From a virus: a DNA stretch of 64,000 nt. Where the stretch lies: positions 91,574 to 155,573 of IMG/VR virus record IMGVR_UViG_3300032397_000003; one strand, 5' to 3'. The notes below the pieces were generated by a model. It searched no databases. It was not told where the DNA came from and saw nothing but the letters and a program-made list of their open reading frames with translations. Position numbers and translations under genes: made by a program. This document shows, piece after piece, positions 45,231-63,973 of the stretch; position 1 is the first letter of the stretch, and each line of letters begins with the position of its first letter.

Positions 45231-46481
45231 TTACTTTTTATCCTTTGTTGGTATGTATTGATAGGGTACTCCACCAAATCCAAATTCTACTTTACCTTTT
45301 ATATTAGACATTTTTCTTATATCGTCTTCTGAATATATTTTAGCCATAGAATACTCGACTGTTAAATCACCCCCTATAAATTTAGGTAATCCCTCTAATG
45401 ATTTTAATTGTGGATTTCTATCACATATAAAATCATCCCCTACAGTATCAGGACTATTTTTTAAAGATGTTAGATTATTCATATGACAAGCAAAGTGCCC
45501 ATCAACAGTTCCAAATTTAAAAGGAATTTCTTTTAAGTGTTTATTCCCTATATCAACATATCCCTCAAAATCAACAGTTAAATCCATATTTATAATATAA
45601 TCTTTATTCTCTAAACCTAAATTTTTAATATTATATTCTATCTTTTGTTTCGGATCATGGATATTTATAGTTTTCTTAGCTGGAACATTATCTACTCTTG
45701 TTATAACTTCAAATGCTCTTGTATTAAAGAATACAGCTTGCATAGGTTCTGATGGATGTATATATCCTTTACCTGATTTATCTGCAAATCCACTATAACC
45801 TAAATCTTTTGATAGAATAAGATTCCATTTAGTTGATGATTGCTTTGAATCTGCTGATAAAAAATCAGACAACAATCTTGTTATATTCCACATAGAAACT
45901 GATGGATTTTTTTCTTTAGCTTCTTTTAAAGAGTAATCTATAAACTCTAACCATAGCTCTTTTTCATTATCAAAAATTTGTACATCAAAATACTTTCTTA
46001 TATGTCTAATAGCTTTTTCGGTCTTATATTCTTTAAACATTATTTCTTTATATTTCTTTTCTAATATCTTTATATCCATATCATACTTATCACTACCATA
46101 ATCCTTATACATATCTTCTATAAAATGTGATTTATCTTTTACTCTAATAAATGAAATGTATTTAGCACTACCGGCAAAGGGAGCATAAGAACCAACTGAC
46201 TTAGTATATATATTTTTACTTTCTGAACTTTCAAATCCTTTTGATAAGTTCATAAAGGGTGTGTAATTTTTAACAAATTCTCTAAGTGGGTATGTGTAAA
46301 TCCCTACAGGCGTATTGAACTTACTTTTAGGATTTATACCTATCTTATCTATTTCTGTAAATGATATATAAACATCTTTATCATCTTTATATTTATCTAC
46401 ATAATCCCAAGCACTTATATGAGGATTCTGCTCAGGATTTCTTCTTGCTTCATTGAAATTAAATGGTTTATATCTTTTCAT
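45231..46481 (-). CDS. putative internal head protein: ART-like domain plus C-terminal LRR-like repeats
   Basis: MKRY..FNE leader; TPVGIY and LGYSGFAD..IHPSEPMQAVFF; repeats NNLTSLKNSP / QLKSLEGLPKFIGGD. Confidence 0.55.
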   Translation of the reverse strand: MKRYKPFNFNEARRNPEQNPHISAWDYVDKYKDDKDVYISFTEIDKIGINPKSKFNTPVGIYTYPLREFVKNYTPFMNLSKGFESSESKNIYTKSVGSYAPFAGSAKYISFIRVKDKSHFIEDMYKDYGSDKYDMDIKILEKKYKEIMFKEYKTEKAIRHIRKYFDVQIFDNEKELWLEFIDYSLKEAKEKNPSVSMWNITRLLSDFLSADSKQSSTKWNLILSKDLGYSGFADKSGKGYIHPSEPMQAVFFNTRAFEVITRVDNVPAKKTINIHDPKQKIEYNIKNLGLENKDYIINMDLTVDFEGYVDIGNKHLKEIPFKFGTVDGHFACHMNNLTSLKNSPDTVGDDFICDRNPQLKSLEGLPKFIGGDLTVEYSMAKIYSEDDIRKMSNIKGKVEFGFGGVPYQYIPTKDKK

Positions 46482-46711
46482 TTCTTAACCTTACTCAGTA
46501 TATCTTTTGCGATCTCAATCGATTCACTTAATGCATCTATATTAGGATCAACCTTTGCATCTATAATTTTAAACTCAGGTACTATAACAAGTTTCTTACC
46601 AGACTTTCTAAAATACATTACAGCAAATACTATACCTGCAAATATTGCTATGATGAATATAATAGTAAATAGTGATACTAGGTTGTCTTTAATTGATTTT
46701 AAAAAATTCAT
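46478..46711 (-). CDS. small membrane protein (holin-like candidate)
   Basis: Single strong TM segment in a late operon. Confidence 0.45.
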   Translation of the reverse strand: MNFLKSIKDNLVSLFTIIFIIAIFAGIVFAVMYFRKSGKKLVIVPEFKIIDAKVDPNIDALSESIEIAKDILSKVKK

Positions 46712-46712
46712 C

Positions 46713-47000
46713 TTAATTCCTCTTTAGATATTGCTCTACTTCATTTATAAAATCCCTTCTTTTTATATTCCCACAATTTCCTTTGTCCCAGTCATCTATA
46801 ATTTTAAGAACAGATGTGGCAGTACCATAAGTTCCAAATTTAGTATCCGATATCTTTTTCATTATACTATCATGATCTTTTTGATTCTTAACATCATCCC
46901 ATTGTTGAAATAATTTATTAACAATAGCACCATTATTTATGTCTGGTGATACTATAGTTTGATTGCTTTTTTCTTTAAAATAACTTTCATATCTTTTCAT
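46713..47000 (-). CDS. putative internal head protein
   Basis: MKRYESYFKE leader. Confidence 0.55.
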   Translation of the reverse strand: MKRYESYFKEKSNQTIVSPDINNGAIVNKLFQQWDDVKNQKDHDSIMKKISDTKFGTYGTATSVLKIIDDWDKGNCGNIKRRDFINEVEQYLKRN

Positions 47001-47003
47001 TTA

Positions 47004-47375
47004 TTACACTCCAAAAATACTTAAATTTACGTTCATTGGTGAGGTACTATCTGTGCTTATATCTACACTTGATATTAGTTCTGCAAAAACTGAATCTACT
47101 GAATAAACAAATATTCCATTGATAGGAATAACTATACCTGATGGAACTCCACTATATACTACTCTTAGATTAGCTGTAGCAAGTACTTCATTAGGGTCTT
47201 CTACATTAGCTATAATTTTAGATATAGTACCTACTTTAGATACAGGAACAGTTATCCATCCATCTGTATCAATTAGTTGATAGAACTCCCTCTCAATTTT
47301 CCCAGCCAAAGTAATGTCTTGTGAATTGTATTGACTTGACGTCCCAACCACTTCTACATTTAATTGTATTGTCAT
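47004..47375 (-). CDS. putative virion structural protein
   Basis: Beta-rich protein in a late operon. Confidence 0.5.
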   Translation of the reverse strand: MTIQLNVEVVGTSSQYNSQDITLAGKIEREFYQLIDTDGWITVPVSKVGTISKIIANVEDPNEVLATANLRVVYSGVPSGIVIPINGIFVYSVDSVFAELISSVDISTDSTSPMNVNLSIFGV

Positions 47376-47521
47376 TCTATATCACCTTTATATTTTTCTC
47401 TTTTATATTTTCTACGATTAGACTCAACCCTTGGCTTCTGGACAATAATATGTCTCTTACACATAGATAGTATCTGTTCCTTTTTATCCTTATATAATTT
47501 AATTGTGGCTATTGTTTTCAT
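47372..47521 (-). CDS. small basic protein (49 aa, not in ORF track)
   Basis: MKTIATIKLYKDKKEQ...; TGA overlaps the next ATG; directly after the late motif. Confidence 0.4.
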   Translation of the reverse strand: MKTIATIKLYKDKKEQILSMCKRHIIVQKPRVESNRRKYKREKYKGDIE

Positions 47522-47573
47522 AATAATTATTAGTAAATAAATAATAGAAAATTAAATTACTAATAATTATAAG

Positions 47574-49649
47574 TTATAAATGAGGGCGGGCTTTTAACAA
47601 ATGTTGAATAGCCTTAGTAGCAATCTCCTTCTTATCCCCCTCTTTATCTGAAAACCGTTTATTTTCCATTTCATATATCGTTGTAGGAATTGATTGATGG
47701 TTAAATGCTCCAAAGACAGCATTACAAGATGTATCTGAACAGTCCTTCGCATAAGTTCCAGCGGTGGATTTATCCCAATCTCCATTATACTTTTGATTTC
47801 TTGTTCCTTCCTCATGGTCTATTTTATCTTTTCCAGATTCTGATTTAGTTACTTTAAGAGCTTGTAGGTTATTCTTTAAGAATATGTTTCTACCTGATTT
47901 AATCAATCCATTATTAAGACAAGTAAGATATATCATATATGGGTTAATGGTACGATCTACAGATTGGATGAATATCTGTACATGATTTCTTTCTAAGAAT
48001 TGTTTACCGTGTCTTGATTGAAATGTATCTGTATATATTCCATATATAGGTAGACTAGCTTTACTCATTAAATCCATTATAAAGTATATAGGGGCTTCTA
48101 GTGATGTTTCTTTTTTAGCCCCTATTATAACACAACATAGATCATGAACAAATATAGAAGCTTTCTTTTCTATGCTCCACTCTTTATGAAGAATAGTTAT
48201 CCCCATTGCATCCCCTGCTAGCGAATAAGCGTTGTCAATTGAGATATATCGCGGTTCATTTGGTGCTCTAACAATTCTATATTCTCCCGTTGAATTTCTG
48301 TGAAAAAACTTGTCCTTAATTTGATCCCAAATTAACCCTTCTGGCAAATCAACCGCATCGGCAATTATTGCCCCTTCAACGTTCTTGAGTATATTATTCT
48401 CGAAAATATTTTCTATTAAGCTTATATCGTTAATAAATTTATTCTCAGATACAGTCGGTCTTCCCGCTATGTCCTTTATACTCTTAGCTAGATTATCTTT
48501 AAAAGCATCATAAGCATCTATAGGAACATATATAATTAAGTCACCTGGAATTCCTTCTAGTTGTCTTTCATCGGTAACTATAGCAGCTGGTATTGATCCA
48601 TTCCCTGTTATTACTTTAAACATAAGCCCCCTATCAAACAGGTCTTTGTTTAACCCTTCTACGCTCTCATATTCTTTTTGTTTTAAAAGTTCTTCCTTTC
48701 CTTTATTATACTTTTTAAAATTCTTTCCATTATTAGGAAGAGCTTCCCATCTCGTAGTCCAATTGAATCTTACTCCTTCCCTGTATCTTAGTTCAGTAAG
48801 TACGTGTTTCTCTATTACGGAATCAACATTGTTTGCTGATGTATCTAAGTATAAGAAAGTTAGATAATCTTCACCTACTGTAGCTTTAATTCTATCTGCT
48901 ACGTCCGTATATAATCTGAAGATACTTTCTTCAGTAGCACCCGCATTCTCAACCCAAAAACTTATTTCGCTGATATAGGCACTCAACAAATTTGCACCGA
49001 TGAATGCTAGAGCATCATCATTACCAAGTTGTAATTGTAATCCAGAGGCTAAAGTAATTTCCCCTGAAGTAGATGCTTTACTGTATACTATTTTTCCTCT
49101 ACCTAATCTATTCTGTTCTGGTATTACTTTATCTTGAAATTTAACCTGAATAAATCTATTTGATTTCTCCATCATTTTAAACATCGGTCTCAGATAGAGT
49201 TCTCTAGTCTTATCATACTTAAATGAAATAATATATACAGCTAAATCTGTAAGAGGGGATAGTCCATAATACATAGCAGGTTCTCTCACATGATGTATAA
49301 AGACCATTGTATATGCAATAAGCAGAATAGCTAAATATGTTTTACCTATCCTTGTTGAACCATACTGTACAATCTTATTATATTTCTTTGTAGGATCAAG
49401 GCATTCTAAAAATTCAGCTCTTATCCAAGGATATATACTTTGAGTAAATGTCTCTGGTAACCATCCATTCTTAGGATCAAGGAATTCTGCTGGAGTTGGG
49501 GGAGTAGAAAAATATATAATACTTTCAACTTGCTTCTTTAATTCTTCTTGTGTACTCTTATCAAAATACATCTTATACATCATCTCTCTTTCTTCTACTG
49601 AAAGATGACTATAGGATTCTTCTATTATTTGTTCTCTTGATTTCTCCAT
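47574..49649 (-). CDS. terL: terminase large subunit
   Basis: Walker A GSTRIGKT, Walker B-like AYISEI, coupling motif LDTSA, RNase H-like YISIDNA..GDAMG, TDTFQS, KDCSD. Confidence 0.85.
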   Translation of the reverse strand: MEKSREQIIEESYSHLSVEEREMMYKMYFDKSTQEELKKQVESIIYFSTPPTPAEFLDPKNGWLPETFTQSIYPWIRAEFLECLDPTKKYNKIVQYGSTRIGKTYLAILLIAYTMVFIHHVREPAMYYGLSPLTDLAVYIISFKYDKTRELYLRPMFKMMEKSNRFIQVKFQDKVIPEQNRLGRGKIVYSKASTSGEITLASGLQLQLGNDDALAFIGANLLSAYISEISFWVENAGATEESIFRLYTDVADRIKATVGEDYLTFLYLDTSANNVDSVIEKHVLTELRYREGVRFNWTTRWEALPNNGKNFKKYNKGKEELLKQKEYESVEGLNKDLFDRGLMFKVITGNGSIPAAIVTDERQLEGIPGDLIIYVPIDAYDAFKDNLAKSIKDIAGRPTVSENKFINDISLIENIFENNILKNVEGAIIADAVDLPEGLIWDQIKDKFFHRNSTGEYRIVRAPNEPRYISIDNAYSLAGDAMGITILHKEWSIEKKASIFVHDLCCVIIGAKKETSLEAPIYFIMDLMSKASLPIYGIYTDTFQSRHGKQFLERNHVQIFIQSVDRTINPYMIYLTCLNNGLIKSGRNIFLKNNLQALKVTKSESGKDKIDHEEGTRNQKYNGDWDKSTAGTYAKDCSDTSCNAVFGAFNHQSIPTTIYEMENKRFSDKEGDKKEIATKAIQHLLKARPHL

Positions 49650-49995: not shown

Positions 49996-50337
49996 ATGGA
50001 AAAGAAAATTGAAAAATATCAACCATTATTTGAAATGGCAAATTTGACTAAATCTGATACAGGTTTAAACTACAGACTTTGGATTCAAACTCAAACAGGG
50101 AAAGAAAAACATTGGGCTATACTTAAAGTGGAAGTAGATAATGAATTTATTCCTATATCTATTACTGATGAGCCTGAAATAATGATAAAGAGTAAAAAAG
50201 ATATTCTTGATGCTAAGGATTTCAATGCTATTAAAAAATGGATTGTAATGAATCAAGAAGTACTACTTAAATACTGGAATAGTAAAGGAGAAATGAGCTT
50301 ACAAGATTTCTTTAAGAAAATGAAAAAATTTAAATAG
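49996..50337 (+). CDS. DUF4160-like (EMANL family) protein
   Basis: KYQPLFEMANLTKSDTGL..LWI..GKEKH..LKV..KKWI..N.E.LLKYWN; paralog of 53819 and 24153. Confidence 0.65.
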   Translation: MEKKIEKYQPLFEMANLTKSDTGLNYRLWIQTQTGKEKHWAILKVEVDNEFIPISITDEPEIMIKSKKDILDAKDFNAIKKWIVMNQEVLLKYWNSKGEMSLQDFFKKMKKFK

Positions 50338-50351
50338 TATTAAAAAAGTAG

Positions 50352-50379
50352 TAGACATTACAAGTAGTTACTATATAAC
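50352..50379 (+). promoter_or_regulatory. class I promoter
   Basis: A-tract then TAGACA-N16-TATAAC. Confidence 0.6.
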
Positions 50380-50400
50380 TAAATTAAAAAGGAGAAGATA

Positions 50401-50796
50401 ATGGAAAGATATTTAACAGAGGATCAGAAACAAATTAAAATTTGGAGAGAAAAAGAAAAGTTTACTGAAATGTCAAGAATAGGTAATTTACCTAAGCATA
50501 AAGATATTTCAGTATGGGTAAATGAAAAAGGGGAAGAAAGAGAAGAGCCTCATTTTCATATTAGATTTGCAAATAATGAAGTATTTAGATTAAGATTCAA
50601 AGATTTAAGCACTATGGATAAAAAAGGATTTGATAGTGTCTTATTAAAAGAATTTATAAAATGGTTAAAATCCCCAAGCAAGCTTGATAAAGATATTACA
50701 AATGTAAAAGTATCTCTACTGATTTGGAACGCACAAGAATACAATACCCACAGAGTTAAAATGTCTGATTTAAAATGGTTAAAAAATATTGAATAA
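50401..50796 (+). CDS. DUF4160-like protein
   Basis: EMSRIG..ISVWVNE..EEPHFHI motif. Confidence 0.65.
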   Translation: MERYLTEDQKQIKIWREKEKFTEMSRIGNLPKHKDISVWVNEKGEEREEPHFHIRFANNEVFRLRFKDLSTMDKKGFDSVLLKEFIKWLKSPSKLDKDITNVKVSLLIWNAQEYNTHRVKMSDLKWLKNIE

Positions 50797-50821
50797 AAAA
50801 TTAAAAAATTAAAAAAAGTAG

Positions 50822-50849
50822 TAGACATTTTTAATAGGTAGTTTACTAT
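50822..50849 (+). promoter_or_regulatory. class I promoter
   Basis: A-tract then TAGACA-N16-TACTAT. Confidence 0.65.
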
Positions 50850-50890
50850 AGTATTTAATAAGAAGTTAAAAATAAATAAGGAGAAAAACA

Positions 50891-51040
50891 ATGACAGCAA
50901 AACAGATTCAAAAAGCATTTTCAAAAGAAGACTCAAGAGAAGAATCAATGGCATTTGTTTCAACATTCAAAAAAGACAAAAGAGATTCATCCAAATGGTC
51001 TAAACGTAAAGTTGATTACTATGGTAACAACGTAAAATAA
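50891..51040 (+). CDS. small early protein (49 aa, not in ORF track)
   Basis: AAGGAG RBS; MTAKQIQKAFSKEDSREES...YYGNNVK. Confidence 0.6.
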   Translation: MTAKQIQKAFSKEDSREESMAFVSTFKKDKRDSSKWSKRKVDYYGNNVK

Positions 51041-51053
51041 TTTAAAAAATTAA

Positions 51054-51692
51054 ATGGAGAAATTACCAATGGCAAAATTAAACAGTATCTACATAACAAA
51101 AACAGATGAAGAAGTAATTGATATTTACAGGAATAATGCTCACTATAGAACTAAACAAGAAATTGAAACTTATTTTTACAAAAAGTATTCACCACTATTT
51201 AAAGCTCTTTCAAGAAAATTTTACTATGCTGAATCAGTAGAAGATAATATGCAAGAGTGCTATTTAAAAATGATTGAAATACTTGAAGATTCTTCTTATA
51301 CTGTAGGGGAGGATACTTTAGGTTTAATGTTAAGAAAAAAAATAAATTCTCATTTACAGTATCAAGGTAAAAAAGCTCAAGAGTATATGGTAGAGGAGTA
51401 TATAGAACTTGATGAGGAAGATGAAGATGCTATAATAACAAAACAAAGTAAAATACACAGTGAAGAATTTGTTTCAGAACTTATATTTAATATTACTCTT
51501 AAAGATTTTAGAAAACAACTTAGTACATATGAAAATAAACTTATGGACCTACTACCTAGCAGTATGGAAAAAAAGGAAATAGCAAAAGAATTAGGATATA
51601 AACATACTGCTAATTTAGCCCCTATAAGAAAAAGTCTAAAAGAAAGATATATTACTTTTATGAATGAAGCTGGATATGAATTAGCTATATAA
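51054..51692 (+). CDS. phage sigma-70-family sigma factor
   Basis: Region 2-like KYSPLFKALSRKFY..VEDNMQECYL; region 4 HTH LSTYE....MEKKEIAKELG. Confidence 0.75.
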   Translation: MEKLPMAKLNSIYITKTDEEVIDIYRNNAHYRTKQEIETYFYKKYSPLFKALSRKFYYAESVEDNMQECYLKMIEILEDSSYTVGEDTLGLMLRKKINSHLQYQGKKAQEYMVEEYIELDEEDEDAIITKQSKIHSEEFVSELIFNITLKDFRKQLSTYENKLMDLLPSSMEKKEIAKELGYKHTANLAPIRKSLKERYITFMNEAGYELAI

Positions 51693-51761
51693 GAGATTAT
51701 TTGTAACTGCTTTATAATTATTATAAGGCAGATATAAAAAATTTTAAAAGGAGAAAGAAAA

Positions 51762-51980
51762 ATGAATACACAGGATGTTACAAAAATAAAAGAGTTTATG
51801 TTTTATAATTTTGTTAGTTATACAAATCAATTAACAGAGGAAGAAAAATTTACAAATGATTTTGATGCATTTAAAATGACTGAAACTCTTAGTATATTAC
51901 TAAATACAACAAAACAAAAAATAATGACAGATTACCTTAATTATTATAAGGTACAAAAGCAATTAGGACTTTTTAAATGA
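51762..51980 (+). CDS. hypothetical protein
   Basis: AAGGAG RBS. Confidence 0.55.
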   Translation: MNTQDVTKIKEFMFYNFVSYTNQLTEEEKFTNDFDAFKMTETLSILLNTTKQKIMTDYLNYYKVQKQLGLFK

Positions 51981-52171
51981 AATGTCAACACTTTCACATA
52001 TGCGTAAATAGTTATAACCCTCTCTGTTCTGATAGTAAATGTTCTCTTATTAAACAGGAACAAGGGAGAGAAGATCAAAGTAGGTTAGAATCTGTTAGAC
52101 GAGCAATAGATAAGTATAAGACTAATGAGAAAATAAAAAGTTTTTTAGATAGAAAAAGTTTTAATTGTTGA
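51977..52171 (+). CDS. hypothetical protein
   Basis: ATGA-coupled, Cys-rich N-terminus. Confidence 0.5.
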   Translation: MKCQHFHICVNSYNPLCSDSKCSLIKQEQGREDQSRLESVRRAIDKYKTNEKIKSFLDRKSFNC

Positions 52172-52188
52172 TAAAATTTCTATATATT
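52160..52188 (+). promoter_or_regulatory. class II promoter
   Basis: TTTAAT-N17-TATATT. Confidence 0.7.
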
Positions 52189-52225
52189 ATAATTAGAGAA
52201 TGAATTTAAATAAGGGGTAAATATA

Positions 52226-52411
52226 ATGACAAAGAAACAATTACTTAAGCTGTTAAAAGATATTCCTGATGATTATGAAATTATAGCAGAGACTATTCCT
52301 GTAAATGATGAAGCAATAAAAGGACGGTCTCGATATACAGAATTTAAAATTGATAGTGATGCTATTGCTTATGATGATCATAGAAAAGTAATAATAATGA
52401 CTTTGATATAA
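52226..52411 (+). CDS. hypothetical protein
   Basis: MTKKQLLKLLKDIPDD N-terminus; RBS present. Confidence 0.55.
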   Translation: MTKKQLLKLLKDIPDDYEIIAETIPVNDEAIKGRSRYTEFKIDSDAIAYDDHRKVIIMTLI

Positions 52412-52422
52412 GGAGAAGAGTT

Positions 52423-52683
52423 ATGTTAACCAACGAAGAACTTGAACAAGTAGATATAAATCAATTTCTTAAAGATTATGTAAATGGTAGAACATATAGA
52501 GATATAAATGCTGTACTTAAAAGATTAGATATACCGGAAGAAGATAAAGAGTATATTCAGAAGTATATTCAGAAGTATATCAAATGGAGAAAAAGTTTTT
52601 TCTATAAAAAAGGTATAGAAAATGGAAAGGAAAGATTTAAAAAAGATTTATGGGAAATGATTAAACCGGATTTGGAGGATTGA
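52423..52683 (+). CDS. hypothetical protein
   Basis: AAGGAG RBS; contains an in-frame 12-bp tandem duplication (YIQK repeated). Confidence 0.55.
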   Translation: MLTNEELEQVDINQFLKDYVNGRTYRDINAVLKRLDIPEEDKEYIQKYIQKYIKWRKSFFYKKGIENGKERFKKDLWEMIKPDLED

Positions 52684-52937
52684 ATATGAGAAAGTTTATA
52701 ACATATGATGGTAAATATACTACAACAAATGATGCAGGACTTTTAAAAGTATGGAGATATGATATTGAATGTATAGGAGAACCTTGGAGAGAGGAAGATT
52801 TAATTGGAGATGGTTATGTTCTTTCTCTAATACATAGAATAGAAGAATTGGAAGATGAACTTAGTAAAACAAAAGAGGATTTATATATTTCTAAAGAAGT
52901 AATTAAGCCAGCAGGGCAAGGAGATTATTGCGAATGA
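52680..52937 (+). CDS. hypothetical protein
   Basis: GGAGG RBS. Confidence 0.55.
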   Translation: MNMRKFITYDGKYTTTNDAGLLKVWRYDIECIGEPWREEDLIGDGYVLSLIHRIEELEDELSKTKEDLYISKEVIKPAGQGDYCE

Positions 52938-52946
52938 AATATATAT

Positions 52947-53135
52947 GTGGATATTTATATAAGAATACTAAGTATTGACAATGTAGCTGATGCTGTAGTA
53001 AAACTATTAGGTGTAAGGTATGCAAAAAGCATAAAGTCTGAAACAGTTATTACTGATTGGACGACTTTTGGGATGGATAACATAAGATTAGCAACAGCAG
53101 AAGAACTTCAAGAATATTTTAAGGAGAATAAGTAA
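52947..53135 (+). CDS. hypothetical protein
   Basis: Ends IRLATAEELQEYF. Confidence 0.5.
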   Translation: MDIYIRILSIDNVADAVVKLLGVRYAKSIKSETVITDWTTFGMDNIRLATAEELQEYFKENK

Positions 53136-53183
53136 TTTTATACTAAAAATAAAATAGATATTATAACTTAAATATATAGAAAT

Positions 53184-53248
53184 AAAACTGCAACTTTTTT
53201 AAAAATAATAAAAAAAGTGTAGACATTTCTACATATGTTTTGTACTAT
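53184..53248 (+). promoter_or_regulatory. class I promoter, repeated cassette
   Basis: TAGACA-N17-TACTAT; repeat of the 49706 cassette. Confidence 0.75.
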
Positions 53249-53287
53249 ATACTTAAGTTAATAAAAAGAAGTTAAAGGAGAAACAAA

Positions 53288-53817: not shown

Positions 53818-53818
53818 A

Positions 53819-54142
53819 ATGGAAAATGAAAGATACCAAAAGTTTTTTGAAATGGCAAATATCTCTATTAAAAAAACTGGATTAGATTATATAGTTTGGA
53901 TATCTCCTCAATCGGGAAAAGAGAAACATAACGCTAGAATTAAAATTCAAATTGATAATGATTTTGTTCCTATAACAATCTCTGATAATCCAGAATTAAA
54001 AAGTAAAACCAAAATAGATTCAAAGAAACTCAACAAAGTGTATAAATGGATTATACTCAATAAAGAAACACTTTTAAAATATTGGAATGGTAAAGGTAAA
54101 ATTGGTATAGATGAGATACTGGATGAACTAAAGAAAATTTAA
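53819..54142 (+). CDS. DUF4160-like (EMANL family) protein
   Basis: RYQKFFEMANISIKKTGL..VWI..GKEKHNARIKI..KWI..NKETLLKYWN. Confidence 0.65.
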   Translation: MENERYQKFFEMANISIKKTGLDYIVWISPQSGKEKHNARIKIQIDNDFVPITISDNPELKSKTKIDSKKLNKVYKWIILNKETLLKYWNGKGKIGIDEILDELKKI

Positions 54143-54157
54143 ATAAGGAGAAATAAG

Positions 54158-54346: not shown

Positions 54347-54351
54347 TAAAA

Positions 54352-54876
54352 ATGAAAAAATATGAACGATACCAGGAATCAATTACTGTAGGATATAAAG
54401 GTAGAAAAATTATTGATACTTATCATTCTATCGACAGATTAGTTGATAAAACTAGATTTGTCAATTTAGAAAAGGATCAAGTTATTACTGTTATCAATAA
54501 TGGAATAAAAAAGATTATAGATAACTATAAAGATGAAAGTACCACTTATGGTATATGGTCTAAATCAACTGGAATATGTATCATATTAGAACGGAGAAAA
54601 GATAATCAGAATAATAAGGATAAAAATAATCATGCTATCATTATTACTCTTCCACCTATTAAGAAAAATTTTAAGGACTTTCATACTAAGTCAGTGGATA
54701 CCAGAATAATAGTAGAGAGTTATTTACACTCTTATATAATGAAAATAGCTCAAAAAGAAATAGGGTGTAGTGCTAATGAAATAATAACAATTAAACTTAA
54801 TGAAAATGTTAATGTCACCTATCACGAAGGAGAACTTTGGGATAGTGGAATAGCATACTGTATAGAAGTAGAATAA
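54352..54876 (+). CDS. putative internal head protein
   Basis: MKKYERYQES leader; TYHSIDR..R motif. Confidence 0.5.
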   Translation: MKKYERYQESITVGYKGRKIIDTYHSIDRLVDKTRFVNLEKDQVITVINNGIKKIIDNYKDESTTYGIWSKSTGICIILERRKDNQNNKDKNNHAIIITLPPIKKNFKDFHTKSVDTRIIVESYLHSYIMKIAQKEIGCSANEIITIKLNENVNVTYHEGELWDSGIAYCIEVE

Positions 54877-54897
54877 AGGATAAAAGGAGAAATAACA

Positions 54898-56706
54898 ATG
54901 ATACAGAAAACAGTTACAAAACTTATTGAAGCAAAGGAAGCTTATTATAATAATGAACCTATTATGACAGATGAAGACTTTGATTATTTAGAATACACTC
55001 TTAGACAAATGGACCCTGATAATAATTATTTTAATCTAGTTGGGGTAGCTCCTATAGGGGATAAAATAAAACATCAATATCCTATGCTATCTATGGCAAA
55101 AGCAAAATCAGTTTCTGATGTAGAAGTATGGTTGAAAAAGATTTTAGACGAACGAGTTCATCTTATTATCGAACCTAAGATAGATGGACTATCTGCAAGT
55201 TGTATATATGAAAATGGTAAACTTCAATATATAGTTACAAGAGGGGATGGGGTAGAAGGAAGAAATATATCACAAATAAAAGATTATATTGATATCCCCA
55301 AAACTATTTCTGTTACTGATAGAATAGAAATTAGGGGGGAGTTATTTATTCCACAGAATAGTGATTTTCCTAATCCCGAGGGTAAACCTCTAAGAAATCT
55401 TGCAGTAGGTCTTGTGAATAGAAAAGATACTGGACTAGAAGATTTGAAATATCTCAAGTTTGTAGCTTATCAAGTATTTGGTTCTGATAAAGAAACAGAA
55501 ATGGAAAAACTCCTATTTATAAAAGATAATAATTTTAATATCGTAGAATCTTTTGTAGCAAAATCTATAGAGGATATTCAAACTTATTTTAATGATTATA
55601 AAGAACACTATAGAACAGTATGGGAATATGAAACTGATGGTCTTATCATTATAGTAAATGATTGTAAGCTACATGAAGAAATCAATGCTAAGTATACCGT
55701 AAGTCACCATAATCATTATGCTATAGCTCTTAAACCTGAATCTGAATCTATGTGGACTATTGTAAATGATATTACATGGCAAGTAAGTAAAAGTGGTTCA
55801 GTTATACCCGTAGTTAATATTGACCCAGTTACTATTGGAGGAGCTGTAATAAGAAATGTTACCGCTAATAATTATGAGAATGTTAAAAAACTTAAAATCA
55901 ATATTGGTGATAAAATTCATGTGGCGCGGAGTAATGATGTCATACCCTACTTAATTGAAACTATACCAAGTTTTGATCAATCAAATTTAATTCCAAAACT
56001 ATGCCCATCTTGTGATAATCATCTAATAGAAAAAGGGGTTCATATAGTTTGTGATAATCCTAAATGTGAAGAAAAGAATATCCAACTTATCACTTCATGG
56101 GTCAAGTCATGTGATATGGATCAAGTATCTGAATCAACTGTAAGGGCTTTATATAATAATCAATATATTAAATATATACAGGACTTATATGTATTAAAAG
56201 CTAAACATATTTCACTAGATGGATTTGGAGATAAGAAAATAACAAATCTATTAGCTCAAATTGAAAAATCAAGAACAATGAATATTCAACAATTTATAGC
56301 AAGACTATCCATCAATCTTGTAGGAGAAAAGGCAGTAAAAAAGCTTGGAATAAATACTATTGACGATTTCTTTAATTTCAATGATAGACAATCTGTGGTA
56401 GGACAAAATATAATAGATTATAGAAAGGAGAATGAAAAACAAATAGAGAATCTTATACAATACCTACATATAGAAGATATAGTTTCTAAATCAGCAACTA
56501 AAGGGAAAGTCTGTATGACAGGTTCTGGACCCCGTGGAAGAAAAGAACTGATTAAAGAGATAGAAGATAAAGGTTATGAATTTACAGACAGTATCAATAA
56601 AGAAACTTCCATATTACTTTGTGAAGATGTTAATGGATCATCTTCTAAACTTGAAAAAGCTAAGAAACTTGGAATACAGCTAATGAATTATTCAGAATTT
56701 TTTTAA
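54898..56706 (+). CDS. ligA: NAD-dependent DNA ligase
   Basis: HQYPMLSM, EPKIDG, TRGDG, EIRGE, TDGLII, AIALK, RSNDVIP, Zn finger CPSC..C..C, C-terminal BRCT domain. Confidence 0.95.
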   Translation: MIQKTVTKLIEAKEAYYNNEPIMTDEDFDYLEYTLRQMDPDNNYFNLVGVAPIGDKIKHQYPMLSMAKAKSVSDVEVWLKKILDERVHLIIEPKIDGLSASCIYENGKLQYIVTRGDGVEGRNISQIKDYIDIPKTISVTDRIEIRGELFIPQNSDFPNPEGKPLRNLAVGLVNRKDTGLEDLKYLKFVAYQVFGSDKETEMEKLLFIKDNNFNIVESFVAKSIEDIQTYFNDYKEHYRTVWEYETDGLIIIVNDCKLHEEINAKYTVSHHNHYAIALKPESESMWTIVNDITWQVSKSGSVIPVVNIDPVTIGGAVIRNVTANNYENVKKLKINIGDKIHVARSNDVIPYLIETIPSFDQSNLIPKLCPSCDNHLIEKGVHIVCDNPKCEEKNIQLITSWVKSCDMDQVSESTVRALYNNQYIKYIQDLYVLKAKHISLDGFGDKKITNLLAQIEKSRTMNIQQFIARLSINLVGEKAVKKLGINTIDDFFNFNDRQSVVGQNIIDYRKENEKQIENLIQYLHIEDIVSKSATKGKVCMTGSGPRGRKELIKEIEDKGYEFTDSINKETSILLCEDVNGSSSKLEKAKKLGIQLMNYSEFF

Positions 56707-56714
56707 ATAAAAAG

Positions 56715-56743
56715 TTTAATTTATAGGAAAAATTCTATATATT
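56715..56743 (+). promoter_or_regulatory. class II promoter
   Basis: TTTAAT-N17-TATATT. Confidence 0.72.
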
Positions 56744-56775
56744 ATATATAGGAATTTAAATAAGAAGAAAAACAA

Positions 56776-57249
56776 ATGGAAAGAATTAAAAAATATCAAA
56801 GAATATTACAAGAGATGGATTTTAAGCGTTCTGAAATTGAACAGGAAATTAGAAGTTCAGACCGTAATAGAAGAGAACATTTGGTACTGTGTTATTATCT
56901 TCCTAAACATACTGCTAATAACCACTGGCAACAAGAAATCTATGCTGATATAAAAGATATAGCGGATAGAAAATGGAAAAATAATAATTGGTATTTATCG
57001 GAAAAAGAGTACTTAGATAATCTCTGGAATAAACCATATGAGAATAAGGATGAGTATGAAATCATAGATAAGACTATTGAAGGACTTATTTATGATAAGT
57101 ACAAAATCCCTAAAGACTGGAAAGATGAAAAAGATGATTTGGTTATTTCACTTCATAATCTTTATCAAGAAATTTCAAAATTACTGTCAGAAGGTAAAAT
57201 AAGTAGATTGGTTGTTTATAAGTTAATAGAAAAATATATTATTAAATAA
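56776..57249 (+). CDS. DUF29-like helical protein with internal-protein-type leader
   Basis: KYQRILQEM leader; EHL....NHWQQEI motif. Confidence 0.5.
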   Translation: MERIKKYQRILQEMDFKRSEIEQEIRSSDRNRREHLVLCYYLPKHTANNHWQQEIYADIKDIADRKWKNNNWYLSEKEYLDNLWNKPYENKDEYEIIDKTIEGLIYDKYKIPKDWKDEKDDLVISLHNLYQEISKLLSEGKISRLVVYKLIEKYIIK

Positions 57250-58333: not shown

Positions 58334-59794
58334 TTAAAGTGAACCTAGCTGCATAAGTCTGCAAAACTTGCCATTAATGACACGAGAATCTTCGATGACG
58401 CAAGAATTTCCCTCAGTAACAAAGTTAGGGTATCTTAAGCTGGCATCTAATTCTGTCAACGTTCCGAAAAGGATACTCACATCCATGGCCTCCTGTGGAT
58501 TCTTGTATACAAGTAACATCTCGTTATTTGCTACAAGTGATGCATCTGCTGGACAAGTATAAACATCCATATCTGACAATGTACCAGACTGGTATACACC
58601 ATTCTTAACATCTCCAGTTACATCTTTCCAAAGGTCATGATTTTTCATATACTCAGTTGCTTTAGAACCTGCAACGATATCAGTAATACCACCCCTTTTG
58701 ATATCATCATAAATTACTGCTCCAACTCTTCCAATTTCAGTAAGAAGTCTTTGTGCATGTGATTTATAACTGATCTCACCAGCAGCCGCAAAGTCTGTAT
58801 CAAATGAAGCTACTGCATTTCCAAGTGCTACTCTTCTTGCTTGTGCAATTGCTCTATAGTCTTTTGCTCTTGCATGCTCTTGTCCAACTGCTTGTGCCAT
58901 ATAATCTTTAGCATCACCAAGACCAGTTGTCTCAAACATGATTTGAGTCATATCAGAAATTCTATATCCAAGAGGCATAGGACGTGCATTGAATCTAGTT
59001 TTCACAAGTTCAAGAGCCATAGTACCATAGTTAGAATAGTTTGTTGCATCTTCTGAGTTCCAGTTATATACACAAACGATAGCTGCTCCTACTGCTGGAC
59101 CACGACCTGCTAAGAAGTTAAGAGTAACAACACCAGTTGAATATACAACAGTGTTTGTAGCTGCAGGATCAAGTAAAGGACCAACAAGTGTTCCAGAACC
59201 ATTATCTACTGCTATTTGTGCACCAGCAACTGTAATTACAGTCTTAAAAGGAATAAGTGGAAGATATGCCATTGCTGCAGAAACGAATGTTATTGTACCT
59301 GCACCAGCACCTGTTCCAACTGCTCCATAATATTGCTCGCCAGAGTAATAAGGAGCTATACTTTCGTATGATCTTGCAGCTGCAACTCCACCTCTAAGAG
59401 ACTGCTCATAAGTCGCTTGGATGTAGAATAATGCATCATCAGTAGAAGTTAGAGGATACTCAGTAAAAATATCACCTCTTTTTGAATTAGCTGCTCCAAG
59501 GAAAACTGCTTTAAGCATATGTTCTGGTTTTACAGATGTTCCAAAAGTAGTAGAATAAAGATTTTCTCTCATGATCTGTTTTAGAACTTTTTCTTGGTTC
59601 TCAAGCATAATTGCTGCTTTACGAATTTTAGCAGGATTAGCTTGATAAGCTTTAAGCATTTCTGGTCCTACTAGGTCAGTTTTTGACCATTTGGATACAC
59701 ATGCTTCTCCCATTTTTGATTTAGAACTCCACTCTCTTTGAACGATTTCGTTCATTTGAGCTTCACTCAATTTTTCTTGTCTTCCGTGTTTCAT
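58334..59794 (-). CDS. major capsid protein (T4 gp23-like)
   Basis: AAIMLENQ, YPL..ALFY, ARPMPL, GVYQSGTL..VYTCP..MLLVYK; late motif upstream. Confidence 0.88.
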   Translation of the reverse strand: MKHGRQEKLSEAQMNEIVQREWSSKSKMGEACVSKWSKTDLVGPEMLKAYQANPAKIRKAAIMLENQEKVLKQIMRENLYSTTFGTSVKPEHMLKAVFLGAANSKRGDIFTEYPLTSTDDALFYIQATYEQSLRGGVAAARSYESIAPYYSGEQYYGAVGTGAGAGTITFVSAAMAYLPLIPFKTVITVAGAQIAVDNGSGTLVGPLLDPAATNTVVYSTGVVTLNFLAGRGPAVGAAIVCVYNWNSEDATNYSNYGTMALELVKTRFNARPMPLGYRISDMTQIMFETTGLGDAKDYMAQAVGQEHARAKDYRAIAQARRVALGNAVASFDTDFAAAGEISYKSHAQRLLTEIGRVGAVIYDDIKRGGITDIVAGSKATEYMKNHDLWKDVTGDVKNGVYQSGTLSDMDVYTCPADASLVANNEMLLVYKNPQEAMDVSILFGTLTELDASLRYPNFVTEGNSCVIEDSRVINGKFCRLMQLGSL

Positions 59795-60128: not shown

Positions 60129-60821
60129 ATGGAAATATGTAATAAATGTAAAAAAGAACTAGATGAATCTAATTTTTATAAAGATAAATCTAGATCAAGA
60201 GGGTACAACTATACTTGTAAAATATGTATGAAAGATAAATATAAAATTGATGCTGCATCACTATCTATAAGTGATATTGAAAAAAGAAAACAAAAAGATA
60301 AAGAAAAATATCATCAAAATTTAGATAAATCTAGGGAGGATAATAGAAAAAGAAAAATAAAGTATAACATAAAACACACAGAAAAAATCAAAGAGGAAAA
60401 GGATAAAAAGAAAAAAATAAAAGAAGAAAAAAGAAAAACTAAAGAAGAAAAAAGAGAAGGAAATTCAAAATATAGACGAAATAGATTAAAAAATGATCCT
60501 TTATATAAATTGATTAATACTATTAGAAGTAGAATTACTATGGCAATTAAATGTCAATATGGGGAAAAACAAAATAAAACAATAGAACTTTTAGGTTGTA
60601 CAGTAGATGAATGTAGAAACCATCTTGAAAAACAATTTACAGAAGGGATGACTTGGGAAAATCATAGTCGATATGGTTGGCATATAAATCATATTATTCC
60701 TTGTAATGCATTTGATTTAACATGCCCATTGCAACAAAAGATATGTTTTCATTATACAAACTTACAACCTCTTTGGTGGAAGGATAATATATCTAAAGGA
60801 AAGAAGATAAAAAAGTCCTAA
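60129..60821 (+). mobile_element. free-standing HNH homing endonuclease
   Basis: N-terminal CNKC..CKIC; WHINHIIP..FHYTNLQPLW..DNISKG; inserted antisense within the head operon. Confidence 0.82.
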
Positions 60822-60866: not shown

Positions 60867-62918
60867 TTATATCTTAAATTTATAGTTTGTGAATTGTGAA
60901 GATTGTTCTTTTCTAGATTCTTTCAACTTGTGAATATCATTACCAAATTTAGTTTCAAACAAGGTAACTTTTTTAATTGCTTCTGCAATAGAACCTGATT
61001 TAAGAACCGCTTCTTTGATATCTCTGATAGATGGTTTAGCTTCTACTATTGCTTTATAATAAGCTACAACTTCTTTTACAGGGGCTTTAGATTCTTTTAC
61101 AGATTTTTTCTTAGCATCTACTTTAGCTTGAAGTCTTTTTGCTTCTTGTCTTTTCTTACGTCTAATAGCCTCTTTCTTTGCTGCTCTTACTGCTGCCATT
61201 TTATCATCAGCATTATCTTCAGAATCATCTTCTTTTTCATCATCTTCTTTATCGTCTTCTTCAGCTTCGTCTAGTTCTTCATCATCTTCGTCTTCATCAT
61301 CAGACTCGTCCATTTTTTCTTCTTCGTCATCTTCATCTTCGTCATCTGATTCTTCCATTTCTTCTTCGTCTTCGTCACTATCTTCAGAATCATCTTCCTC
61401 AGCTTCTTTTCTTTTTTTAGATTTAGATTTTTTAGATTCTTTTTTAGCTTCTTCTTTGTCATCTTCATCGTCTTTTTCTTCGTCTTCTTTTCCATCTTCA
61501 TCTGCTTCGAAGATATACTCATCATTTTCTACATCGTCATCAAAAAGACCACCATCTATATCAGCACCAGAAAGATCGTCTTCATCATCCATAATTTCAT
61601 CATCAAAATCATAATCAAAGTCTTCTTTAAGTATTTTTTCAAGCTCTTTAATATGTTTTTCGGCTACTTTAAGTGCCTTAGATTTTGTAGATGATTTTAA
61701 TTTCATTTTCTCCCTTTCTTCTTTAAATTTTGCAATGTCCTTTTCTCTCAACTCAGTGTCTTCTTCATACACTTTAAGATCAGAATCTCTCTTTTGAACT
61801 TCCTCTACAAGAACTTTAATATCAGCTTCCATAAGTTCCCTATCTTCTGAGAATTGTTTAAGATCAGCTTCCATCATTTTTACAGATTTAACAATATCTT
61901 TGTCATTAGCTTTTTCAACAATTTTAGATGCTTTATCAAGATTCTCTTTAAGTACTTTAATAGTCTCACAAGATGCTTCATATTTTTTAGATAGACTTTC
62001 AAGAGTTTCTTTTGATTCTTTTAATTCTTGTTTAGCATTATTTTTCTGCTCTTCAAGTGTATTTTGAATCTGTACAATCGTTGCTTCGACTTGAGCTTTT
62101 TGTTCTGCCATCTCAGGAATGATTGTTTCGGAAACTTCTTTAAGCCCTTTTATAGCTTCAACGCAGTTTTCATTAGCAATCGCTTCCTTGATGGTAGCTT
62201 TAATTTGATTCTTAATAGACAATTCCAAATATTTATCCATTTTTCCTTTTACCTCTACCATTTTAATTTTTTCTTCTACTTTATTAGTAATAATACTTTC
62301 TGAAATTTTATTTTCTTTTTGTACTATTGACTTTTCTTCTAAGTTTTCTTGAGTAGCAAATACTCCTTGAGAAGGTTTCATTACCCAGTCGGTTTGAGAA
62401 TATTCATAACTAGATGGATTAACCTCTTTACCTGCTAAAGGACCATCCTCGTTTAGCTCCCCGAAGCCTACGGTTGAGAAACCTGTTTTTCCACCTGCTT
62501 TAATCTTCTCTAATAAAAGATTCCCTGCTGCCCCTATACAATATAAATCAGCAGTAGATACTTCCTCTCCTATCTGAAAATTATGCCATACTCCTACTTG
62601 ATCGAGCACATCTCCGTCATCATCGGCATGGTTGGCCAACGAATCACTCCCTTCAAACATTCCTGATTTATGTACAGCTTCCCATAGTTCTTTGGAATAT
62701 ACTCTACCGTTAGCATTTTCGGTATAACGAGTAATAGGAACATTTTTAAGTATCCCTCTTGCTTCAAATTGTTTTCCTGATTTAGCTTCAGTAAACTTAT
62801 TATCCTTTGATGTAAATACAATAACATCTTCTGCTTTAGGAGAATAGGATACGCTCTCTATTAAAAGTTGTTTCCCTTTTGCTTTAGCTTGTTCTTGTAA
62901 TGTTTTATACTTGTTCAT
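60867..62918 (-). CDS. prohead protease (gp21-like) fused to acidic coiled-coil scaffold (gp22-like)
   Basis: NANGRVYS, LANH (His), GFSTVGFG (Ser), DWVMKPS; then coiled coil and a D/E tract with many (hydrophobic)xE sites. Confidence 0.85.
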   Translation of the reverse strand: MNKYKTLQEQAKAKGKQLLIESVSYSPKAEDVIVFTSKDNKFTEAKSGKQFEARGILKNVPITRYTENANGRVYSKELWEAVHKSGMFEGSDSLANHADDDGDVLDQVGVWHNFQIGEEVSTADLYCIGAAGNLLLEKIKAGGKTGFSTVGFGELNEDGPLAGKEVNPSSYEYSQTDWVMKPSQGVFATQENLEEKSIVQKENKISESIITNKVEEKIKMVEVKGKMDKYLELSIKNQIKATIKEAIANENCVEAIKGLKEVSETIIPEMAEQKAQVEATIVQIQNTLEEQKNNAKQELKESKETLESLSKKYEASCETIKVLKENLDKASKIVEKANDKDIVKSVKMMEADLKQFSEDRELMEADIKVLVEEVQKRDSDLKVYEEDTELREKDIAKFKEEREKMKLKSSTKSKALKVAEKHIKELEKILKEDFDYDFDDEIMDDEDDLSGADIDGGLFDDDVENDEYIFEADEDGKEDEEKDDEDDKEEAKKESKKSKSKKRKEAEEDDSEDSDEDEEEMEESDDEDEDDEEEKMDESDDEDEDDEELDEAEEDDKEDDEKEDDSEDNADDKMAAVRAAKKEAIRRKKRQEAKRLQAKVDAKKKSVKESKAPVKEVVAYYKAIVEAKPSIRDIKEAVLKSGSIAEAIKKVTLFETKFGNDIHKLKESRKEQSSQFTNYKFKI

Positions 62919-62927
62919 ATATTACCT

Positions 62928-63134
62928 TTAATTACCAATTTTTCCATCTTGTATTCGGCTAAGAGCTATACCATAAATATCTCCATTACCGAAGTCTACA
63001 TTAACCATATCTTTCATAACTTTTATTACTTTACCTTTTTTCTTATCAAGTAATGAGCCTTTGAAATCTCCTATAAGAGTATCACCAACTTTTATATCGT
63101 CTGCTTCTTCAAACTTTCTTTTATATCTTTTCAT
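62928..63134 (-). CDS. putative internal head protein (SH3/KOW-like)
   Basis: MKRYKRKFEE leader; IKVGD..KGKVIKV..VNVDF. Confidence 0.55.
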   Translation of the reverse strand: MKRYKRKFEEADDIKVGDTLIGDFKGSLLDKKKGKVIKVMKDMVNVDFGNGDIYGIALSRIQDGKIGN

Positions 63135-63403
63135 AATCCCTCTGTATCCTGTCCATAGTTTATTAGTTCATCCCCGATACTTGTGAATAAGTCCCCAATC
63201 GCTTTAAAGGCTTTTCGAGACCTTTTATCCTTTGAATTGTGCAAGCTTGTAAAAATATCAATCATACTCTTACGAGACTCCTCGTTGCCATAATCATTAT
63301 CCCTAAGTACTCCTAATAATTCGGTTACCTTGTCATCTAACCAATCAGGAGTAGTATCCTTATCATCTTCATCTTCACTGTAATATCTTATGTATCTATT
63401 CAT
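63131..63403 (-). CDS. putative prohead core / internal protein
   Basis: MNRYIRYYSE leader; in the head operon. Confidence 0.55.
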   Translation of the reverse strand: MNRYIRYYSEDEDDKDTTPDWLDDKVTELLGVLRDNDYGNEESRKSMIDIFTSLHNSKDKRSRKAFKAIGDLFTSIGDELINYGQDTEGL

Positions 63404-63412
63404 AATAAATAC

Positions 63413-63790
63413 CTATCTAAACGACCACTCTTTAGTTTCATAGTTATACAGTGATGTAAGTAATTCAGTACCATTTGAGCCCCCTGATTTATATTCAAAC
63501 CTAAAATCTAAAGTCATCCACCACGTAGGTTCCTTATCATTTATTGCAGAGTTAAAAGTCTTTAAAATAAAGCTGCTATAAATGTTTTTAAGTATACCAG
63601 TTAACTTAGTTAAATCCTTAGATTGCACGGATAAGTACTCTTTTCTAGAAGAAATTTTTGAAATAGATAGAGGTATACTCACACCTAATCTTTTTTTAAC
63701 TTCATTTTCTAAAGGTGTTAAATCTATCGTTGAAATTATTTGATCTAATAATTGATTATCTTCTTTAAACTTGCTCACATATCTTTTCAT
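63413..63790 (-). CDS. putative internal head protein
   Basis: MKRYVSKFKE leader. Confidence 0.55.
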   Translation of the reverse strand: MKRYVSKFKEDNQLLDQIISTIDLTPLENEVKKRLGVSIPLSISKISSRKEYLSVQSKDLTKLTGILKNIYSSFILKTFNSAINDKEPTWWMTLDFRFEYKSGGSNGTELLTSLYNYETKEWSFR

Positions 63791-63796
63791 TTTTAT

Positions 63797-63973
63797 TTAC
63801 CTATTTCTTAAATTATTTATAACTTGTTTTATTTCTTCTTCTGTTAGAAATCTTTGCATAGATTCGTAAAGTCCATCAGAGAATACAGAAATATTCTTAG
63901 ATTCATTATAAAACTTAATAAATTCTTCAAATATTTTTAAAGTACCTTCTTCTAATCTTTTATATCTTTTCAT
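63797..63973 (-). CDS. putative internal head protein (58 aa, not in ORF track)
   Basis: MKRYKRLEEGTLKIFEEF...LRNR*. Confidence 0.55.
   Translation of the reverse strand: MKRYKRLEEGTLKIFEEFIKFYNESKNISVFSDGLYESMQRFLTEEEIKQVINNLRNR

Follow-up and report, generated by a model that had tools for sequence, protein, structure and literature searches.

The loading of diverse proteins into a phage head by way of a short common leader is a well established concept for phage T4. Its capsid-targeting sequence (CTS) is carried by the internal proteins IPI, IPII and IPIII and by Alt, and is removed by the prohead protease gp21 (Mullaney and Black 1996; PMC9026906, PMC3012670); within the IPIII signal, residues 4 and 7 are responsible for targeting and residues 8 and 10 for processing (PMC9026906). 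The internal-protein loci of the T-even phages encode diverse proteins that have only this conserved CTS in common (PMC3012670; PMC9026906). In the giant phages, the gp21-related proteases phiKZ gp175 and SPN3US gp245 cut many head and ejection proteins after Glu, and the propeptides of these are thought to target them into the prohead (PMC5694885, PMC10052503), and an N-terminal signal on DarB of phage P1 is sufficient to load a foreign protein into the capsid for delivery (PMC9024508). The subject here is a short N-terminal leader, hereafter the “tag”, that is shared by mostly unrelated proteins of an uncultured phage (IMG/VR record IMGVR_UViG_3300032397_000003) and that was first noticed in a 64,000-nucleotide stretch of its genome, hereafter the window. 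We think it likely that this leader represents a T4-type capsid-targeting propeptide system, greatly expanded.

The window comprises positions 91574–155573, the last 64 kb, of a 155,573-bp record whose first 127 bases recur at its end, and coordinates below are those of the window unless marked as genome positions. Judged from this 127-bp terminal overlap, the assembly is circular and the 155.6-kb genome of this uncultured phage complete (GC content ~29%), so the minus-strand genes at the right edge of the window run on at genome position 1. A simple call of non-overlapping open reading frames (ORFs) over the whole genome gives 240 genes. Of these, 24 start with M-x-[RK]-Y, where 1.5 would be expected from the frequency of internal [RK]Y, and 21 of those 24 have a hydrophobic-x-E ending at residue 9–14, whereas such a motif ends at these positions in 27% of the remaining N-termini and in 22% of windows taken from protein interiors. 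The full pattern, an N-terminal M-x-[R/K]-Y followed by 2–8 residues and then hydrophobic-x-E, is accordingly present in 21/240 ORFs. The scan against shuffled N-termini that the initial annotation had proposed leaves little room for background, with 0.44 ± 0.66 matches and a maximum of 4 in 2000 shuffles of residues 2–20, and none of 750 internal Met positions carries the pattern. A position matrix built from the 21 leaders gives a bimodal distribution, in which 22 ORFs score at least 14 bits and all others 10 bits or less. The leaders of this genome are 9–14 residues long, and both position 2 (K, E or N) and the distance to the Glu vary.

The initial annotation, made from the window, had listed 12 firm leaders, and all are found where it placed them, on the minus strand with starts at 63973, 63790, 63403, 63134, 62918, 47000 and 46481 and on the plus strand with starts at 49996, 50401, 53819, 54352 and 56776. 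Its leaders are thus real, and its overall figure of ~13 was an effect of the window: once variants are added, namely those with the [K/R]-Y pushed 1–5 residues inward, an internal start at genome position 18736 and the ORF at 50401, ~30 genes (~12% of ORFs) are tagged across the genome, ~2.5 times the earlier count.

The likeness to the T4 signal, which had also been proposed, is supported by a comparison of positions. In the T4 record, IPII and IPIII start M-K-T-Y-Q-E-F-I-A-E and continue with Ala, and IPI has a related 19-residue leader. Applied blind to all 270 T4 N-termini, the matrix derived from this phage only places IPIII first and IPII second; the difference at position 3 keeps the absolute scores of T4 low (0.9 bits), but the ranking is very unlikely to arise by chance. 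As a separate observation, the protein ranked third by this matrix is T4 gp61.1 (AF158101/L010, 18966–19130, minus strand), which is uncharacterised and starts M-K-T-F-K-E-F-I-K-E; on this sequence, gene 61.1 may encode an unrecognised tagged T4 protein.

The second line of evidence is the protease. The gene at 60867–62918 (minus strand) encodes a 683-residue protein with its own leader-like N-terminus (L-Q-E at 7–9), an N-domain (residues ~1–190), followed by a long coiled coil, then by an acidic stretch and a C-terminal segment that is conserved. The initial annotation read this gene as a protease-scaffold, and comparison of fold and profile indicates that it is indeed a gp21-type (MEROPS S77) prohead protease fused to scaffold. 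An alignment-based model of the protease domain (pLDDT 85.8, pTM 0.81) has T4 gp21 (5JBL) as its sole significant Foldseek match in the PDB (E 2.4e-7, probability 1.00, TM 0.61/0.73), the next match having E 0.36. By hhalign, gp21 from the T4 record is matched with a probability of 92% (E 6e-7, 25% identity over 162 columns), with His97 paired with gp21 His85, Ser148 with Ser140, and the Q-L-L-I-E at 17–21 with the Q-L-L-I-E at 5–9 of gp21, the latter being a likely autocleavage site in T4 (PMC9026906). Since the Pfam gp21 model PF03420 (like PF04586) finds no match in the genome, the enzyme is to be regarded as a distant member of the gp21 group whose homology is visible by fold and profile. 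Searched against PDB sequences, the full-length fusion profile matched only coiled-coil proteins. With the N-domain as query, 364 clusters (50% identity) were obtained from 1.84 billion representative proteins, and among the matches listed nearly all have the domain at the N-terminus of a 500–750-residue protein; in an alignment of 133 homologues, E21, N68, N70, R72, Y74, H97 and S148 are invariant.

A specificity for hydrophobic-x-E is to be expected of such an enzyme, given that it is gp21-type. Conserved L-x-E sites lie in its own N-terminus: E21 is present in 133/133 homologues and the residue two before it is always L, F or I, E44 (in F-T-E44) is found in 114/120, and E9 in 75/88 where that part is present. 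As the initial annotation noted, hydrophobic-x-E also recurs through the scaffold, with 36 occurrences against 20.9 ± 3.6 in shuffles, an excess to which coiled-coil periodicity could contribute. The 486-residue major capsid protein (58334–59794, minus strand; phrog_1014) in turn has a K-H-G-R motif followed by L-S-E at 9–11, and in 12 relatives whose capsid proteins start with K-H-G-R (or K-F-G-R) a hydrophobic-x-E is retained a few residues after the motif, a count that leaves out L018, L028 and L031, where the capsid genes have different starts. These predicted capsid and protease sites consist of hydrophobic-x-E without [RK]-Y; the [RK]-Y half of the tag would therefore be dispensable for cutting and serve some other role, which suggests, on sequence grounds, that the two halves of the tag have separate roles.

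Related phages carry the tag as well. From 14 related loci, 87 distinct leaders were gathered, with a modal length of 10 (52/87) and the consensus M-K-R-Y-K-S-[I/L/V]-F-K-E followed by S, D, E or A. Tyr4 and Glu10 were imposed by the collecting pattern and position 8 was limited to hydrophobic residues, so that their constancy is no independent evidence; within those limits, 49/52 ten-residue leaders have F, L or I at position 8, and 29/52 have I, L, V or Y at position 7, which the pattern left free. In contigs with a 70–85% identical capsid protein, the small ORFs that bear the tag, both upstream of the protease-scaffold gene and at other places, are non-orthologous. More distant relatives (protease domain 41–53% identical) have tandem arrays within ~10 kb, of 19 tagged ORFs for L026 and of 14 for L023, and within neither array is any pair of mature parts alike by BLAST. 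The arrangement recurs in two contigs from metagenome bins, with [K]-R-Y at times offset from the start, and the most distant loci (protease ≤35% identical) have few or no tagged ORFs.

The mature parts behind the tag are for the most part unrelated, as had been claimed: among 35 candidate mature regions, BLAST finds only two pairs at E<1e-3, the DUF4160-like pair and one weak pair. Evidence that the leader is a unit separable from its cargo comes from three sources. In strain L001, which is near-identical over this region, an unrelated 48-residue cargo stands in place of the 68-residue ORF at 62928–63134, DNA identity ending right behind the first six leader codons and returning at the ribosome-binding site of the protease gene. 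For the tagged nucleotidyltransferase, 26 homologues of 199–277 residues share an N-terminal linker, and most, not all, of them start with a leader-like [K/R]-[Y/W] ... Glu; of 11 short homologues (150–196 residues, some from NCBI assemblies), 10 start at the catalytic core without leader and linker. Finally, in 16/16 homologues of the DUF4160-like proteins a leader of variable length ends in hydrophobic-x-E right before a conserved Met or Ala that would be the mature start. The initial annotation had pointed to domains that begin with Met directly after the Glu, which holds for the DUF4160-like paralogues and for the 157-residue ORF at 56776. Because of the cargo swap, the leaderless short nucleotidyltransferase homologues and the conserved DUF4160-like junction, the view that a leader was added to existing genes is supported at the level of sequence: it behaves as a module set before pre-existing domains.

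A few of the cargoes have recognisable domains. A DUF2204 nucleotidyltransferase (genome 23849–24511) scores above the Pfam cut-off, and a phosphoribosyltransferase domain (genome 67712–68431), a weak AbiEii-like nucleotidyltransferase (genome 81498–82076), a weak DUF5661 and three intact DUF4160-like proteins are likewise tagged; the remaining tagged proteins have no Pfam or PHROG match. The initial annotation's larger proposal, a modular system for packaging anti-defence or takeover proteins, is in this respect partly supported: the T4-type signal, the gp21-type protease and the modularity stand, and recognisable domains are confined to few tagged proteins.

Because a T4-like signal here ends at the site of an encoded T4-type protease, the tag probably marks proteins that are carried inside the virus particle. 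The gene order, which parallels that of T4 in placing small core proteins before protease, scaffold and capsid, also supports this reading. In a mechanism of the T4 kind, the N-terminal half of the tag (M-[K/E/N]-[R/K]-Y) would dock a newly made protein to the core of the assembling prohead, a core that would be composed of the protease-scaffold fusion protein. Upon closure of the shell, the gp21-type protease domain would cut behind the Glu of the hydrophobic-x-E that closes the leader; cuts of the same kind are predicted for the N-terminus of the capsid protein and for L-x-E sites both in the scaffold and near the start of the protease itself. The mature proteins would then remain in the head with the DNA, and many would probably enter the host with it. 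Given the rapid turnover and the enzyme domains, we favour an effector fate for at least part of the set, with a core or packing role possible for array members in view of their position and small size. A bolder proposal, which we put forward tentatively and regard as rather doubtful in its full extent, is that the lineage as a whole (364 protease-scaffold clusters) uses a portable ten-residue label, and that more than one-tenth of the genes, including rapidly exchanging arrays of up to ~19 unrelated mini-proteins, are pre-loaded as a co-injected anti-defence arsenal.

Several observations weigh against reading the leader as an expanded T4-type targeting signal. Position 7 is frequently Lys, not hydrophobic, in this genome, and in some relatives the [KR]-Y is offset 2–6 residues from the start. 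Some nucleotidyltransferase homologues have lost the leader Glu. The five plus-strand tagged genes are without the 8-mer box TACTAATA of the virion genes and may possibly be made early, before proheads exist. A load of ~30 species would lie far above what T4 takes in by the CTS route. Internal hydrophobic-x-E is not depleted in mature cargo (observed/expected 1.0), although this test is uninformative. To these may be added the miss with PF03420, the part of the scaffold's motif excess that may come from coiled-coil periodicity, and the failure to find a cultured relative: with the protease domain as query, tblastn matched none of 50,697 phage records.

A propeptide removed by the protease need not, of course, mark an effector. 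Most of the small tagged proteins might instead be core or assembly parts, comparable with gp67 and gp68 of T4, or counter-ions for DNA packing, in which case they would be degraded or expelled at maturation and not delivered. Their position speaks for this: ten tagged small ORFs (58–168 residues) lie directly upstream of the protease-scaffold gene in a cluster that spans the contig junction, between upstream virion genes and the protease, which is where gp67 and gp68 are found in T4 (the T4 order being portal, gp67, gp68, gp21, gp22, gp23, and the order here tagged small ORFs, protease-scaffold, capsid). Within this cluster one ORF (genome 2032–2214) scores only 1.4 bits and one untagged 72-residue ORF is interspersed. 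Several of the small mature proteins are acidic (pI 4.4–5.3) and most have no recognisable domain. However, arrays of up to 19 unrelated members and the replacement of cargo between strains suggest dispensable genes of fast turnover, some tagged proteins are enzymes (the DUF2204 nucleotidyltransferase and the phosphoribosyltransferase domain), and the mature parts are more basic overall (median pI 8.3 vs 6.2 for the genome), as in the basic internal proteins of T4. A general core or assembly role is therefore unlikely in our judgement, if by no means negligible.

Considerably less probable still is a sorting or regulatory signal unconnected with the capsid, such as an export signal, a degron or a site for activation by cleavage in the cytoplasm. 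Basic N-termini are common in export signals, and some tagged genes lie outside the virion clusters and may be early; the five on the plus strand (49996–57249) lie among small ORFs and a DNA ligase, where a scan for sigma-70 promoters found no more than background (61 found vs 60.9 expected). On the other hand, no hydrophobic core follows the basic residues of the leader, the next residues being acidic or polar; the motif with which the tag ends is that of a protease joined to scaffold in one polypeptide; and in every relative examined the tagged genes are densest directly upstream of the protease-scaffold gene.

One might also ask whether the common start is an in-frame nucleic-acid element, such as a translation enhancer, a promoter or a recombination site, and not a functional peptide at all. 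In its most frequent coding form the start is rich in A and includes TATAAA, and the swap in strain L001 breaks after the first six codons, so that leader DNA can act as a recombination boundary. Yet in relatives the M-K-R-Y-K peptide is written with all of AGA, CGA, CGT, CGG and AGG for Arg and with both Tyr and both Lys codons, the Ser that follows it with TCA, AGT, AGC and TCG (two codon families), and Phe with both of its codons, the peptide remaining the same; in this genome, the leader's codon choice agrees with general codon use. Residue 2 may be K, E or N, the spacing to the Glu varies, and no upstream DNA is conserved: the 45 nt upstream of the 21 starts have only a Shine-Dalgarno-like GAGG/AGGT in common, and many tagged genes abut the preceding stop codon. 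A degenerate form of the pattern gives 20, 17 and 10 matches in whole related records against 0–1 for a reversed control. The unrelated mature parts, the free use of synonymous codons and the absence of common upstream DNA together argue that selection acts on the leader peptide rather than on the DNA, and we consider a DNA element, rejected on the synonymous-codon evidence, to be hardly credible. A shared start without tag function could also stem from a single gene family that has diverged, or from chance in a genome rich in AT, and although two tagged pairs are paralogous and Lys-rich starts are frequent in low-GC genomes, we give this next to no credence and reject it on the shuffle, internal-Met and T4 controls (the AT-rich T4 genome reaches at most 0.9 bits vs 14–30 here), the more so as conservation ends abruptly at the Glu with the remainder unalignable and the tag precedes Pfam domains whose shorter homologues are without it.

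We return to the expanded T4-type propeptide system and to its members in the window. The minus-strand ORF at 63797..63973 (58 residues) has a 9-residue leader, M-K-R-Y-K-R-L-E-E (26.4 bits), with a Shine-Dalgarno-like site upstream, and is the first in-window member of the ten-gene cluster that crosses the contig junction. It is followed on the same strand by a 125-residue ORF (63413..63790; 10-residue leader ending F-K-E, 25.5 bits; no Pfam or PHROG match), a 90-residue ORF with an acidic mature part of pI 4.4 (63131..63403; 10-residue leader ending Y-S-E, 22.6 bits), and the 68-residue ORF whose cargo is swapped in the near-identical strain (62928..63134; 10-residue leader ending F-E-E, 28.7 bits). 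Further minus-strand members are a 95-residue ORF (46713..47000; 10-residue leader ending F-K-E, 23.1 bits), which is a distant paralogue of the ORF at genome 32155–32436, and a 416-residue ORF (45231..46481), the biggest tagged cargo in the window, with an 11-residue leader ending F-N-E and followed by Ala (26.8 bits); this last protein has no Pfam or PHROG match, and the protein Atlas returns only viral hypothetical proteins for it.

Three of the plus-strand genes encode DUF4160-like proteins. The 113-residue product of 49996..50337, whose 13-residue leader ends L-F-E, is 46% identical to the 107-residue product of 53819..54142, whose 11-residue leader ends F-F-E; both have a predicted mature part starting with Met. 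The third (50401..50796, 131 residues) is a weak match to the family, with sites L-T-E at 5–7 and F-T-E at 21–23 and a predicted Met start for the mature part, and the same ORF is present in L002. The other two are a 174-residue ORF (54352..54876; 9-residue leader ending Y-Q-E, 22.1 bits), whose leader is retained in the orthologue of a relative (L004/L005) and for whose cargo the protein Atlas yields no function, and a 157-residue ORF (56776..57249) with an offset variant of the leader, 13 residues long with [K]-Y at 6–7 and L-Q-E at 11–13 (8.2 bits), again with Met at the predicted mature start. The initial annotation had also listed, more loosely, a leader at 24153 (plus strand). The L-Y-E followed by Met is present, but it belongs to a 31-residue, GTG-started stub, and a 65-residue ORF at 24331–24528 carries the C-terminal part of a DUF4160-like domain, so that 24153..24528 looks, from its sequence, like a degenerate, interrupted fourth DUF4160-like paralogue.

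The minus strand of the window also has genes for tail sheath, tube and products of baseplate size. The box TACTAATA occurs in 44 copies genome-wide, mostly 26–42 nt 5' of virion-gene starts, and precedes the starts of sheath, tube, baseplate and capsid genes as well as some tagged genes; examples in the window are at 23907 (-), 21661 (-), 47534 (-), 47559 (+), 49769 (-), 59992 (-) and 60048 (-). Two copies precede the capsid gene, back-to-back copies stand at strand switches, and the box is found inside the tagged arrays of L023 and L026 too. Behind such a box lies the gene for a 691-residue protein (47574–49649, minus strand), conserved after the capsid gene in relatives; no match to it was obtained in Pfam, PHROG or PDB sequences, and it is a candidate for a portal or terminase that current profiles miss. 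Between the protease-scaffold and capsid genes, on the opposite strand, stands a 230-residue Cys-rich ORF (60129–60821, plus strand) with no Pfam match. It is missing from L001, where the gap is 300 nt vs ~1070 nt here, and it looks like a mobile insertion at a site comparable with that of T4 segD beside gene 23.

The capsid protein itself has no Pfam match, so that it is not recognisably gp23 by Pfam; hhalign aligns it with T4 gp23 collinearly over 368 columns, a weak match (11.7% probability, E 0.0025). Residues 152–243 of its profile match a 568-residue chain named ‘Gp23’ (PDB 9ukm, 9vl4) at E 5e-10 over ~90 residues only, which is probably a shared insertion domain. Against cultured phages, the capsid protein gives a single 24% match, to a Pseudomonas phage, and megablast gives none. 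In a collection of species-representative genomes, the protease-scaffold matches only two contigs, L033 (13.9 kb) and L034 (6.4 kb), from bins labelled Candidatus Saccharibacteria and Tangfeifania sp.; both are probably phage contigs that ended up in those metagenome bins, and they are too short to name a host.

Proteins carried in the capsid and injected before phage genes are expressed form a first line of counter-defence, and outside a few cultured models packaged proteins have been found only by virion proteomics. A tag of the kind described here would allow hundreds of candidate packaged proteins to be listed from sequence in an uncultured lineage and would show the mode of cargo exchange, by swaps of cassettes behind the tag. 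Should the arsenal proposal be true, injected effectors could be read directly from metagenomes, and a label logic so near that of T4 across ~20% identical proteases would be an ancient, transplantable feature of gp21-type head assembly. The resemblance points to a T4 packaging signal that is far older than the T-even phages and reaches well beyond them, which bears on the evolution of head assembly, and such tags are of relevance for the loading of foreign proteins into phage particles.

In the literature searched, we found no description of such tagging with a scaffold-fused protease ~20% identical to gp21, nor of a tag at ~12% of genes, in arrays of up to 19, or of a uniformity that can be read from sequence. 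Among the looser counterparts, the signal of P1 DarB is 10–30 residues long, with no consensus among the Dar proteins and no link to a gp21-type motif (PMC9024508). The phiKZ-like propeptides, unlike the leaders here, end in (S/A/G)-x-E, are often >100 residues long and have no common sequence, whereas the present leaders are short and uniform with a hydrophobic residue at -2; neither the (S/A/G)-x-E nor long, non-uniform propeptides are found among them. The variable loci of the T-even phages come closer in that cargo turns over behind a conserved leader, here seen as one swap between near-identical strains, and differ in that the present lineage has tandem arrays of 14–19 in 10 kb and a protease 17–25% identical to gp21, and is uncultured.

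It is the T4 CTS itself that the present leader most resembles, both being leaders of 10–20 residues on unrelated proteins, with Met-Lys at 1–2, Tyr at 4, hydrophobic residues at 7–8 and Glu at 10. Of these, Tyr4 and the Glu were required by the search patterns used here, and position 7 is hydrophobic in part of the leaders. The cut in T4 is at (L/I)-x-E, and the proteases share fold and family and an N-terminal L-L-I-E. In both, genes for small tagged proteins lie immediately 5' of the protease gene, and other tagged genes are scattered. The differences are that position 3 is Arg or Lys here and Thr in T4, so that the present leader is strongly basic, and that position -2 is F, L, I or Y (often Phe or Tyr) here and L or I in T4. 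The T4 capsid propeptide has 65 residues, and the predicted one here has ~11. Protease and scaffold are one polypeptide here, and where T4 has a handful of tagged genes this phage has ~30, with arrays of up to 19 in its relatives.

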